64,000 nt of DNA from Promethearchaeota archaeon (GTDB taxonomy: Archaea > Asgardarchaeota > Thorarchaeia > Thorarchaeales > Thorarchaeaceae): assembly GCA_048939765.1 (NCBI GenBank), contig JBHLPF010000005.1:1-64000 (forward strand), given 5' to 3'. The notes under the pieces were generated by a model that ran no database searches, was not told where the DNA came from, and saw only the letters and a program-made list of their open reading frames with translations. The position numbers were made by a program, and so were the translations under genes. Shown here piece by piece: positions 34,245 to 38,089 of the stretch. Numbering within the stretch: position 1 is the first letter of the stretch; every line of letters begins with the position of its first letter.

Positions 34245-35144
34245 CTATAGCATTGGAACCACGAAGTAGCCTGCAAGAAGTGTGGATAAAAGCGAGACCG
34301 TCAACAGTACCCAAATCGGTCTGCTCCATCGAAATATGGTGCTTCCATCAAAACCAGGAATGGGTATCATGTTGAATAGGCCCAGGAATGAATTCAATAG
34401 CATTCCATAGAATATTATGAACTGAACCGCGGAGGCCAAAGGTCCTGTTGTGATTACAATTATCTCTGCAATGATAAAGAGCAGTCCTGCGATTATTATG
34501 TTGGAGAAAGGACCCGCGACAGTTGATTTTGCATAGTCTTCAACGTCCCTCACGCCTCCAACAGCCATCACTCCAGTACCGAAGATGGGGATTGCAAACA
34601 GGATGGCAACTGCAGATAGATAATATCCCTGCATTGTCATCCGGAAGTGTGCGTACATTCCATATCTTTGTGCTACGAATTTGTGGGCAAATTCATGAAT
34701 CATGAATGACAGCCAAAAGATCAAGATCATCGCAATAGGAAACCACCACAATGACGAGAGTAGAAGAGCTGGCATCAATAGGAACCCATTAACAATTGCG
34801 ATTGGTGATACTGGATTGTTGATTCCGAAAATCGCTATGCTAACAAGAATCGTCAAAACAGTGGCAATCCCTAGATCCCTAATCTCGGTATCCGTGAATC
34901 TTTGCTTTCTTGGTTTCTTCACTTTCACTTGACGGTGCTGCATGAATACGTCTTCATCATAGTCTTCGTCATCATATTGGCCTGTAAAGGAGTCAGCAAT
35001 TTTCTGGCGTGCGCCATCCTTGACCTTTTGCATTGCAGTGCAGCCATGTCCCTCAGGAAGTCTGTGATCAGAGCAATAGACTCCTCTGCAATAAGGACAC
35101 ACAAACACTAGATCTTCCTTGCCGCATAAGGAGCAGTTGGCCAT
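34245..35144 (-). CDS. AN1-type zinc finger fused to M50 (site-2) intramembrane metalloprotease
   Basis: CSLC..CPYCRGVYCSDHRLPEGHGC; HEFAH, AGPFSN, FNMIPIPGFDG. Confidence 0.9.
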   Translation of the reverse strand: MANCSLCGKEDLVFVCPYCRGVYCSDHRLPEGHGCTAMQKVKDGARQKIADSFTGQYDDEDYDEDVFMQHRQVKVKKPRKQRFTDTEIRDLGIATVLTILVSIAIFGINNPVSPIAIVNGFLLMPALLLSSLWWFPIAMILIFWLSFMIHEFAHKFVAQRYGMYAHFRMTMQGYYLSAVAILFAIPIFGTGVMAVGGVRDVEDYAKSTVAGPFSNIIIAGLLFIIAEIIVITTGPLASAVQFIIFYGMLLNSFLGLFNMIPIPGFDGSTIFRWSRPIWVLLTVSLLSTLLAGYFVVPML

Positions 35145-35327
35145 AGTTATTGCCTCTCAGAGTTCAGTTTCACACCGAATACAGTCTTTCTTAAGGGTAT
35201 TCGTAGTGGAATTCGATTGTCTTCTTGAGTTGGAATCATGTGCGTTTCCAAAGTTATTAAGAAAATCGTGCATCTTAGTAAAGGTTCATATACTTTCTAA
35301 TGTAACTTTCCAACATACGCTTGAAAT

Positions 35328-35404
35328 CTAGGCTTGTCGAGAGCGGCAATGGCCCATCTTTCAGACGGCCACGCGTGAAGCCTAGCTTCCTGGAAAGCGG
35401 GAGG
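35328..35404 (+). promoter_or_regulatory. Structured 5' leader of hsp20-cdc48 with SD-sequestering hairpin (RNA-thermometer-like)
   Basis: CTAGGCTT/AAGCCTAG, GCG/CGC and TGGCC/GGCCA stems; then CTTCCTG-gaaag-CGGGAGG pairing over GGAGG. Confidence 0.45.
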
Positions 35405-35415
35405 AACCAAGTTTA

Positions 35416-35847
35416 ATGATTGACGATGACGAATTTCAGAAGATTTTCCGCAGAATGATAGAGCAATTCTTTGGCACCTTCGGGATGCAGCCCGGAGGAA
35501 GCGGGATGGACGGATTGTGGGACGGTGGTTTTGATGAATTGGATGAGATACCACTAGATATGCCTCGTGAAGATGCCAGAGTCGAGCGCATAGACCTTGG
35601 AGATACCGTCATCCTAGTTATGGACGACTGTGCTCTTGAAGAGGGCCTCCAAGTGATTGTCAAAGGGAGAGTCGCAACAATTTCCTACGGTCCTGACAAC
35701 CCTGTTCAGACAATCGAGGCTCCCTTTGTCATTGATGCGAATCGTTCCTTTGTTTCGTGCCGAAATGGAGTTGCTGAGATTCGACTGCAGAAGGATGAGA
35801 ATAATAAGGAATCTGATGACGTAGAGAGATTGTTGAGATTCGAATAG
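35416..35847 (+). CDS. Small heat-shock (Hsp20/alpha-crystallin-like) protein, divergent
   Basis: F/M-rich N-terminus, RNGVAEIRLQK; archaeal hsp20-cdc48 gene order. Confidence 0.65.
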   Translation: MIDDDEFQKIFRRMIEQFFGTFGMQPGGSGMDGLWDGGFDELDEIPLDMPREDARVERIDLGDTVILVMDDCALEEGLQVIVKGRVATISYGPDNPVQTIEAPFVIDANRSFVSCRNGVAEIRLQKDENNKESDDVERLLRFE

Positions 35848-35860
35848 AGGGTGTGTTTGG

Positions 35861-38089
35861 ATGGCGGAAAGCACAGACAATTCAATTAGATTGAAGGTCG
35901 CGGCCGCAATGCCGAAGGATCAAGGTCGCGGGATAGTTCGATTGAACACAGAGGTGCGTGATCTTCTCAAGGTACGTTCGGGTGACTATGTCCTGCTAAA
36001 AGGAACAAAAGAAACCGTTGCAGTTTGTTGGCCCAGCCTCAAGGAGGATGAAGTGCTTGATATGGTCAGAATGGATGGCCTCATTCGCGCAAATGCAGGA
36101 GTGAAACTTGGTGAAATGGTGGAGGTTGGGACAATTACCATCCCTGATGCAACCAGGGTTGTTCTAGCACCGAGTCAGCCAGTAAGATTCCAGCCTGGAT
36201 TTGAGGAATACATTAAGCAACAGATAATGAACCGGCCCATGACGAGAGGAGATATCATCCTAATAGCATCCATAGGACAAGGTCTTCAGTTCACTGCGAC
36301 CTCTGTTGGTCCAACCAAGCATGTTAGAGTTACTGCTTCAACCAAACTCGAGGTTCTCACTAGACCTGCAAAGCCTGAGGAGATTACTATCCCACAGGTC
36401 ACTTACGAAGATATAGGCGGTCTGAGCAAGGAGATACAGAAAATCCGAGAAATGGTGGAGCTCCCCATAAAGTCGCCCGAGCTCTTTAGACGTCTCGGAA
36501 TATCACCTCCAAAAGGCGTCTTGTTACATGGTCCGCCTGGAACAGGCAAGACACTTATCGCGAAGGCTGTTGCAAATGAGTCAGGCGCGAACTTCAAGAC
36601 GATTAATGGACCAGAGATAATGTCCAAATTCTATGGCGAATCTGAACAGAAATTGAGGGAGGCTTTTGAGGAAGCCGAGAAGAATGCCCCAAGCATTATC
36701 TTCATCGATGAACTTGACAGCATTGCACCAAAGAGGGCTGAGGTAACGGGAGAAGTTGAGAGAAGGGTCGTTGCCCAACTACTTGCTCTGATGGATGGAC
36801 TGGCCGGCAGAGGACAGGTCATAGTAATTGGAGCCACAAACCGGGTGGATGATGTTGATGAAGCTCTAAGAAGGCCAGGTCGATTTGACCGCGAGATTGA
36901 GATTGGAGTGCCTGATCGACAGGGGCGTCTTGAGATACTTCAGATTCATACCAGATCCATGCCTCTCGAGGAAGGGCTTGACCTTCAACGGTTGGCTTCA
37001 GTCACTCATGGATTCGTGGGTGCGGACCTGGCGGCCCTAGCTAGAGAGGCCGCGATGGAAGCACTCCGCAGAGCACTGCCGCATGTGGACCCTGAAACTG
37101 GAGATATTCCTCCAGATGTGCTTCGTGATCTCTTTGTCACACAGAATGATTTCGATATTGCACTCTCCGGTATCTCACCTTCTGCTCTGAGGGAGGTGCT
37201 TGTGGAAAAACCCAATGTGCAATGGGAGGATATTGGCGGACTGGAAAATGCGAAAAAGGCGCTGTTGGAGTCCGTAGAAGGGCCTCTCAAGTTTCCGGAT
37301 GTTTTCACAGAAATGAAGATTAGGACGCCAAAGGGGATTCTTCTCTACGGTCCGCCAGGCACTGGAAAGACTCTACTCGCTAAGGCAGTCGCCACTACGA
37401 GTGAGGCCAACTTCATCTCAATCAAGGGACCTGAGATATTCAACAAATATGTGGGAGAATCAGAAAAAGCTGTGAGGGAGATCTTCAAGAAAGCTCGACA
37501 GGTTGCTCCATGCGTAATCTTCTTTGATGAGATAGATGCGCTGCTCAGCCAGCGAGGGCAGCAAGATGACACCGGAGTGACACAGAGGATTGTGAACCAG
37601 TTCCTAGCTGAGGTTGATGGACTTCAGACTCTGCAGAATGTCCTTGTTATTGGCGCTACAAATCGTCCAGACATTATGGATCCAGCAATGCTTCGTCCAG
37701 GTCGGTTCGATATTCTATTGCATGTGGAAGCACCAGACAAGAATGCAAGATTGGAAATACTCAAGGTACACACAGTTGCAAGAGGCATTCCTGGTTCCGA
37801 GAATCTCGATTTGGAGAAACTCGCAGAAAAGACAGCCAATTTCTCTGGAGCGGACATTGAGGGCTTGGTAAGAGTGGCGGTGATGATTGCTGTCACTGAA
37901 GGTTCAACGCCCACGAATATTAAGATGAAGGCCAGGAAAATTGAAATGAAGCATTTCGAGGAAGCTCTGAAGACAGTACGACCCACTTTGACACCGAAAG
38001 TGCTGGAATATTATGAGAAGATTTCTGCAGCTCTAGAAGGCCGTCAGATTGAACCAGAGAGATCGGCGCGATCTGATCTTTATGTATAG
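35861..38089 (+). CDS. cdc48: CDC48/VCP (VAT) AAA+ ATPase
   Basis: N-domain; two GPPGTGKT Walker A motifs; FIDE/FFDE; RPGRFD. Confidence 0.97.

Follow-up and report, generated by a model that had tools for sequence, protein, structure and literature searches.

Genes and operon at the locus

The window, the whole stretch of 64,000 nucleotides that was analysed from a genome of the family Thorarchaeaceae, contains a 271-bp gap (35145-35415) that forms the spacer between a gene for an AN1-zinc-finger/M50 protease and a divergently oriented 143-codon gene, the latter being followed closely by a gene for an AAA ATPase.

34245-35144, minus strand: AN1-zinc-finger/M50 protease gene
35416-35847, plus strand: gene for a diverged small heat-shock protein (sHSP), 143 aa, recognized by matches of its ortholog profile to sHSP structures
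35861-38089, plus strand: gene for a Cdc48 AAA ATPase (TIGR01243), starting 13 nt past the sHSP stop codon

The 143-aa protein, whose start codon is the ATG at 35416, has no Pfam match by itself; as a single sequence it stays under the Pfam and NCBIfam cut-offs, and its match to the NCBIfam archaeal Hsp20 family is weak. A profile built from 21 of its orthologs matched the solved sHSP structures 4rzk (1e-6) and 1shs (1.4e-3), and some of its relatives are labelled 'HSP20 family' in public sources, so that the first gene can be assigned to a diverged sHSP, with the alpha-crystallin-domain similarity of its product indicated at the level of the ortholog profile. The product of the second gene scored 1029.8 bits against TIGR01243 (cut-off 802.65) and contained CDC48_N, CDC48_2, and two AAA domains, which identifies it by homology as a Cdc48/VAT AAA ATPase. 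The adjacency of sHSP and cdc48 is retained at every orthologous locus with sufficient flank, and the two genes appear to constitute one operon. The AN1-zinc-finger/M50 gene is divergently linked to this pair throughout the genus and in some other genera as well (L015 and L017). Across the family, identity is 80-97% for Cdc48 and just 27-92% for the sHSP.

Promoter and probable transcript start

The part of the gap nearest to the presumed start of the operon transcript contains the following elements.

35280-35292, plus strand: BRE-like AAAGG and TATA box TTCATATA of the sHSP-cdc48 promoter, conserved in the genus
35293-35313, plus strand: promoter-proximal direct repeat CTTTCTAA-N5-CTTTCCAA, nearly invariant in L001-L007
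~35315 (+/-3), plus strand: inferred transcription start, from TATA geometry and the constant TATA-to-CGCUU spacing

The TATA box TTCATATA occupies 35285-35292, and the element A(A/G)GTT(C/A)ATAT(A/G) is present in 18/18 orthologous leaders of the genus, lying 25-26 nt before an invariant CGCUU in all 18 and 128-131 nt before the ATG; other genera carry CTTATATAC at the position that matches the TATA box. Archaeal TATA boxes are centred near -26, and given this rule together with the fixed TATA-to-CGCUU distance, the transcript would start at ~35315, upstream of all the hairpins, leaving a leader of ~100 nt. A promoter upstream of the hairpins had already been proposed in a sequence-only reading of this DNA, and the conserved geometry agrees with it.

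The direct repeat just past the TATA box is nearly invariant in L001-L007, in which the encoded proteins are just 65-92% identical, and together with TTAGTAAAG (35275-35283) it makes up an imperfect inverted repeat flanking the TATA box. A genome-wide pattern search found no further copy of the repeat pattern, and the repeat at 35293-35313 is a candidate transcription-factor site. The larger block 35250-35313 is likewise nearly invariant in L001-L007, with a conservation that exceeds that of the coding sequence; it includes both the imperfect inverted repeat that flanks the TATA box (TTAGTAAAG/CTTTCTAA) and CTTTCYAA x2 as a direct repeat, and it opens with a second TATA-like sequence, AAGTTATTAAGAAA (35250-35263), which may serve the divergent AN1/M50 gene as its promoter. 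Being conserved and unique in the genome, the repeats on either side of the TATA box suggest a transcriptional repressor of the Phr/HSR1 kind as a further regulator, and transcriptional control at these repeats (35275-35313) probably also acts on the operon. At other loci (L016-L019, L040-L048, and others) two copies of TGGTCCCTAG lie 5-50 nt past the operon TATA box, and in genus g5 palindromes of the ACCAAATGGTA type lie just downstream of it; these copies and palindromes resemble an operator at which a repressor would cover the transcript start.

A covarying helix at the base of the long hairpin

Downstream of the inferred start, the leader contains a long hairpin, the base of which is termed P1.

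35316-35406, plus strand: genus-specific leader RNA motif (covariance model R2), 76 bits, E 1.7e-14
35328-35335, plus strand: 5' strand of P1, CUAGGCUU, 94% of cells paired, with compensatory changes
35378-35385, plus strand: 3' strand of P1, AAGCCUAG, as for the 5' strand
35336-35377, plus strand: variable apical part of the long hairpin, from the minimum-energy fold

In P1, CTAGGCTT (35328-35335) stands opposite AAGCCTAG (35378-35385), and the apical helices above it are GCG (35343-35345)/CGC (35372-35374) and UGGCC (35350-35354)/GGCCA (35367-35371). The sequence-only reading had listed the TATA-like element, this long hairpin, a second hairpin containing the Shine-Dalgarno (SD) sequence, and the GGAGG itself; all of them lie at the positions that it gave, and the minimum-energy fold of RNAfold at 37 C consists of exactly its helices. 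An apical mini-hairpin, GUCG-AGAG-CGGC (35336-35347), is an alternative to this fold. The consensus of the window's subgroup retains the GCG/CGC and GGCC/GGCC apical helices, and the apical sequence is unalignable between the two subgroups of the genus. The long hairpin also encloses a 9-codon upstream ORF (MAHLSDGHA, 35349-35378), which was considered as a leader peptide (ATG 35349 to TGA 35376-35378) and set aside as probably meaningless, since the closest relative has ACG for ATG and has lost the ORF.

By energy the long hairpin does not stand out (-21.0 kcal/mol, z -1.80, 11/200 shuffles equally good), and the folding energy of the whole leader is ordinary too (z -0.9 to -1.5); comparison with relatives is better evidence against chance than folding energy. 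Covariation of P1 was counted on an alignment made by MAFFT without reference to a fold, comprising 17 distinct orthologous leaders of the genus, from 13 other species and from metagenomes. In these leaders 94% of cells are paired and 5/8 pairs change on both sides (UA/CG, GC/AU, CG/UA, and AU/UA/GC), with several G-U pairs also present. The covariation score of 0.320, against 0.135 in shuffles, was reached by 0/500 shuffles, and controls slid along the alignment gave 29-55% paired and scores of 0.029-0.113. Given this degree of pairing and the compensatory changes in five of the eight pairs, the alignment argues that P1 is a real and conserved RNA structure, and the covariation that the sequence-only reading had proposed to look for in orthologous leaders is thus found at the base of the long hairpin. 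The G-U pairs, in turn, indicate a helix in the plus-strand RNA rather than a DNA palindrome.

The GA-containing internal loop above P1 had been put forward as a possible K-turn for L7Ae binding. The loop, GUCGAGA opposite GUG, lacks the canonical register, and in relatives it becomes GUCAGGAGA, GUAUAUCGG, or CUGACAAUU; it is unconserved among orthologs, and the candidate was rejected.

The SD hairpin and its predicted response to temperature

Immediately past P1 lie the two segments that form or overlap the SD hairpin.

35386-35392, plus strand: pyrimidine-rich anti-SD CUUCCUG, pairs with the SD and varies among orthologs
35395-35405, plus strand: block AAGCGGGAGGA, invariant in all 17 aligned genus leaders

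The SD, GGGAGG at 35399-35404, is complementary to the 3' end of this genome's 16S rRNA (...GAUCACCUCCU), and its GGAGG (35400-35404) precedes the start codon at 35416 by 11 nt. The SD is included in the hairpin 35386-35404, in which CTTCCTG (35386-35392) pairs with CGGGAGG (35398-35404) through a helix with two G-U pairs. This hairpin was first taken to be weak and labile; its computed energy of -8.4 kcal/mol at 37 C (z -2.65, 1/200 shuffles equally good) makes it stable instead. The predicted pairing of the SD in this species holds up, with an unpaired probability of ~0. Compared with 310 other GGAGG-led ORFs of the same genome, for which the median unpaired probability is 0.31, the mean of 0.0025 at the window's SD falls in the lowest 1.3%; by the stricter measure of the opening energy of all six SD bases, the window is just in the top 16% of the controls. 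The 310 ORFs, each of at least 120 codons with GGAGG 5-11 nt before ATG, come from a genome of 3.4 Mb (G000), and strong SD-led initiation seems to be used by a minority of its genes.

The SD hairpin is retained only in the window's species and three close relatives. Across the 17-leader alignment 51.7% of its cells are paired, with zero compensatory changes: the SD strand is invariant, and the anti-SD strand drifts and loses complementarity, so that the structural conservation expected of it in orthologs did not materialize. In single-sequence folding the SD has an unpaired probability of ~0 in the window and L002, of ~0.25 in L003 and L004, and of 0.55-0.80 in L008-L013, which make up half of the genus. 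In L008-L013, the start-codon region also reads CUGA-AUGAU-UGAUGA, placing the AUG in the loop of a box D'/C' K-loop-like motif; the likeness may be a coincidence, since UGAUGA derives from conserved Met-Ile-Asp-Asp codons.

Folding across temperatures gave little sign of the thermal gating proposed for this leader. Opening the window's SD costs 7.9 kcal/mol at 4 C; this cost is down to 7.5 by 25 C and to 6.7 by 45 C, so that it barely drops over this range, and at 65 C it stands at 4.5 kcal/mol. Between 10 and 50 C, GGGAGG stays at 0.00-0.02 in unpaired probability; all these figures rest on nearest-neighbour models, which are crude. In silico, the SD of the window's species is accordingly occluded at low temperature, as predicted by these models. 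The proxies for growth temperature are ambiguous (IVYWREL 0.413, 16S G+C 57.6%). Searching 34500-36500 with Rfam cmscan at E up to 10 returned two chance-level matches in the coding region and no thermometer family, and no Rfam family reached its gathering score over the whole window. In the ROSE family the partner of the SD is a conserved anti-SD, U(U/C)GCU, and a G bulges out across from the SD; here CUUCCUG is fully paired and without a bulge, so it does not fit that pattern, and 35386-35392 contains no U run of the fourU kind. No validated archaeal RNA thermometer was found in the literature searched. Of the thermometer-like 5' UTR that the sequence-only reading had proposed, what stands is a structured leader with a predicted masking of the SD; what finds no support in these comparisons and predictions is the mask as a conserved and heat-labile element.

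The putative P0 helix and two predicted states

The consensus fold of the genus contains a further helix, P0, through which the transcript's 5' end would be joined to the position immediately ahead of the SD.

35318-35322, plus strand: 5' strand of P0, CGCUU, at ~+4 of the inferred transcript, from the RNAalifold genus consensus
35395-35399, plus strand: 3' strand of P0, AAGCG, part of the invariant block AAGCGGGAGGA

The genus-wide RNAalifold consensus consists of P0 (CGCUU/AAGCG) and P1, and that of the window's subgroup of P0, P1, P0b, and the GGCC helix, without the SD hairpin. In the 5' strand of P0 the CGC is invariant and the UU nearly so; as the sequence is invariant, P0 never covaries, and L007, L032, and L020 have an uncompensated change in its last two pairs. 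P0 is a putative helix on these grounds, and its strands may be two independently conserved blocks, the initiator region and the SD, rather than a helix. Single-sequence minimum-energy folding gives an alternative closing helix, GCUUG (35319-35323)/CAAGU (35408-35412), and in an alternative fold UUC (35387-35389) pairs with GAA (35323-35325).

P0 and the SD hairpin overlap by two bases and are thus mutually exclusive. In the window, the closed state (SD hairpin) comes out 4.1-4.8 kcal/mol more stable than the open state (P0) over 4 to 55 C; for L003 and L004 the margin is 1.1-3.2 kcal/mol. As modelled, the other half of the genus has no closed state, so that switching cannot be the conserved function of the leader.

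Leader RNAs across the family

Model R2, built on the genus leader, has a single match in this genome; of the 16 other genomes in the genus, 13 have one match each, in every case ahead of the sHSP gene, and 69 genomes of other genera yielded 0 matches. The orthologous locus was also collected from ~60 species in the 15 other genera of the family, and these have a different leader at the same place, a three-way junction (model R1) composed of the helix GGAGCCCC/GGGGCUUC, a mini-hairpin NNGG-UGAC-UCNN, and the helix GGGCGG/CCGCCC. Within it 90.7% of cells are paired and 13/19 pairs change on both sides, a score reached by 0/500 shuffles. R1 is single-copy and tied to this gene in 62/69 genomes, covering all 15 genera, and a sample of the phylum showed it in 23/26 genomes of the family and 0/125 genomes of 26 other families. 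Neither model points to a regulon-wide motif, as R1 and R2 each have one match per genome, solely at this gene, and neither leader matches Rfam. The three-way junction is present in L015-L022 and L037-L091 (e.g. L017:1419-1491 and L062:220-292), with GG-UGAC-UC nearly invariant.

The two leader types share the promoter, the gene, the place before the SD, and the occurrence as one copy per genome, and they are alike in having ~60 nt closed by an 8-bp covarying helix. The leader of the window's genus differs in that it is without the GG-UGAC-UC hairpin and GGGCGG/CCGCCC and instead has the invariant ACGCUUG and AAGCG. With E allowed up to 1, R1 matched neither the window nor any leader of the genus; a genome-wide search of G000 gave no match either, and homology of the two leader types, which was considered, is undetectable with this model. 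Since covarying, gene-specific leaders occur both in the genus and in the other 15 genera, the comparisons argue that a structured leader is a family-wide conserved trait of this operon.

In most of the other genera the SD is masked no more than background, with a median unpaired probability of ~0.3 versus 0.31 in controls. Genus g5 (L015, L052-L054, L058, and L063) has a mask of its own between SD and ATG, GGGAGG-UAU-UUUUCC, which contains three G-U pairs and is fourU-like; the motif was located in the g5 leaders L015, L053, L054, and L058 and is absent from the window. The cost of opening this mask drops steeply with temperature, in L015 from 8.0 to 3.3 kcal/mol between 4 and 45 C. The T5 run of g5 could be an archaeal oligo-T terminator just before the start codon. 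Masking of the SD is a lineage-specific addition that has arisen at least twice.

Possible functions of the leader

Taken together, the comparative data point to a leader that is a gene-specific and evolutionarily conserved folded RNA, the core of which is a long compound hairpin with a compensated P1. It is a new conserved leader RNA of the sHSP-cdc48 operon and likely works as a two-state translational or stability element. The fuller explanation built on the modelled folds, a leader for post-transcriptional control and stability with closed and open states, is put only slightly on the favourable side of even. According to this explanation, the 5'-terminal ACGCUUG would pair with AAGCGGGAGGA to form P0 and tie the 5' end to the base just before the SD, so that the leader would become one long rod with the SD exposed at its foot. 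For the window's species and the three relatives nearest to it, the CUUCCUG located after P1 and ahead of the SD would fold onto the SD instead; this would exclude P0, and for the window's species plus its closest relative the GAA/UUC extension of P0 as well. The closed state, with the SD paired, would give low translation, and the open state, with P0 formed, would leave the SD free; the leader would in this way serve the sHSP-cdc48 operon as an element of post-transcriptional control and stability. The trigger would most likely be a trans-acting factor or RNA processing and not simple thermal melting, with the chaperone itself (cf. E. coli IbpA) or an endonuclease (cf. the Methanolobus thermosome leaders) as candidates.

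It is also possible, although we hold it only tentatively, that the leader is a translational switch for heat or proteotoxic stress, either as a direct thermometer or as an operator bound by the sHSP and freed when unfolded proteins titrate the chaperone away, with the three-way junction as the ancestral sensor or platform.

Somewhat unlikely is a leader that only stabilises the mRNA and presents the SD, with no switch at all: the P0-P1 rod would block 5'-to-3' decay and display a strong SD, resulting in a long-lived and well-translated heat-shock mRNA, and the SD hairpin of this species would be a neutral, lineage-specific accident. The predicted fold in L008-L013 is exactly such a rod, with the SD 55-80% unpaired, P0 begins at ~+4 of the inferred transcript, the SD hairpin is unconserved, and 5'-terminal stem-loops are known to stabilise bacterial mRNAs such as ompA. 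Nevertheless, a hairpin of -8.4 kcal/mol that brings SD accessibility to the lowest 1.3% would probably not be neutral for a stress gene that is strongly expressed, and the other genera, which have no 5'-terminal closing helix, keep sequence-conserved loops such as GGUGACUC; conserved loops of this kind suggest specific recognition over mere bulk structure.

A true RNA thermometer, in which CUUCCUG/CGGGAGG blocks the 30S subunit until heat melts it and sHSP-cdc48 translation rises without any other factor, the upstream hairpin being merely a scaffold as in ROSE elements, is unlikely. In its favour, the leader precedes a heat-shock gene, folding predicts a paired SD for this species as well as for L002-L004, and the hairpin that contains the SD has two G-U pairs, with an internal mismatch in L003 and L004; furthermore, g5 has independently acquired its different, G-U-rich mask, and such a second mask suggests recurrent selection for SD masking on this mRNA. 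However, the mask is unconserved in the genus, being 51.7% paired without compensation, and in L008-L013 the SD is for the most part unpaired; temperature hardly changes the opening cost in the window, where the closed state is ahead by 4.1-4.8 kcal/mol at all temperatures tested. The thermometer families of Rfam have no match, and melting of the SD hairpin would leave the invariant 5' block and the conserved loops of the family-wide junction unexplained.

Very improbable is a DNA-level element, with the 8-bp inverted repeat as an operator for a heat-shock transcription factor and not an RNA helix: the arms are perfectly palindromic in this species, the minus strand folds equally well, and repressors of archaeal heat-shock genes, Phr for one, bind close to where transcripts start, but 42 bp separate the arms, better candidates for an operator exist in the sequence-conserved repeats at the TATA box, and P1 as a DNA palindrome is rejected on account of arms that vary freely in sequence with pairing kept and of G-U pairs in several orthologs, which are mismatches in DNA and on the opposite strand.

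The preferred explanation, a post-transcriptional leader with closed and open states, bears on a subject of which little is known: to our knowledge, only Phr and HSR1 of some Euryarchaeota have been described as regulators of archaeal heat-shock genes. Our results add two uncatalogued leader RNAs, supported by covariation, both at the core sHSP-Cdc48 stress operon and together spanning all of the Thorarchaeaceae, which belong to the Asgard archaea and are close to eukaryotes. As the RNAs are short and the informative mutations clear, post-transcriptional control of archaeal proteostasis genes becomes directly testable, and a direct RNA thermometer here, if true, would be the first shown in archaea. 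They also teach that an SD-masking hairpin in a single genome is insufficient for calling a thermometer.

Comparison with known systems

The leader shares with the ROSE and fourU thermometers (ibpA, hspA, and agsA) its place in an sHSP 5' UTR, the order of a stable upstream hairpin and then an SD-pairing hairpin, and G-U pairs in the latter. It is unlike them in having no covariance-model match, no U(U/C)GCU with a bulged G, and no four-U run; its SD hairpin is unconserved and predicted to be thermostable, the conserved part being the upstream hairpin instead, and its host is an archaeon.

E. coli IbpA represses its own translation via the ibpA 5' UTR and is titrated off by aggregates (PMC10474464), and the likeness to the present case lies in a structured leader on an sHSP mRNA (PMC10474464). 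Self-repression of this kind would account for a structure that is conserved when a thermolabile helix is not. The systems differ in that the Thorarchaeota sHSP is a very diverged alpha-crystallin-domain protein and the leaders are unrelated, RNA binding being only hypothetical here.

In Methanolobus psychrophilus, processing of the long 5' UTRs of the thermosome genes cpn60 and tap raises stability and translation, and in the primary rpsO transcript an embedded ribosome-binding site blocked translation (PMC5499594). The cpn60 and tap transcripts are likewise archaeal chaperone mRNAs with long leaders (PMC5499594); they belong to another phylum and differ in genes and sequence, and processing is only hypothetical in the window.

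The pair of sHSP and AAA+ ATPase forms the core of the archaeal heat-shock regulon, as in that of Phr/HSR1 in Euryarchaeota (PMC10653856), and the same gene pair is found here. Control in the Phr/HSR1 regulon is transcriptional, and a structured leader has not been described for those operons, unlike the one at the Thorarchaeaceae locus. By analogy, the conserved repeats at and after the TATA box suggest that a repressor could act here too, as in the Phr/HSR1 regulon.
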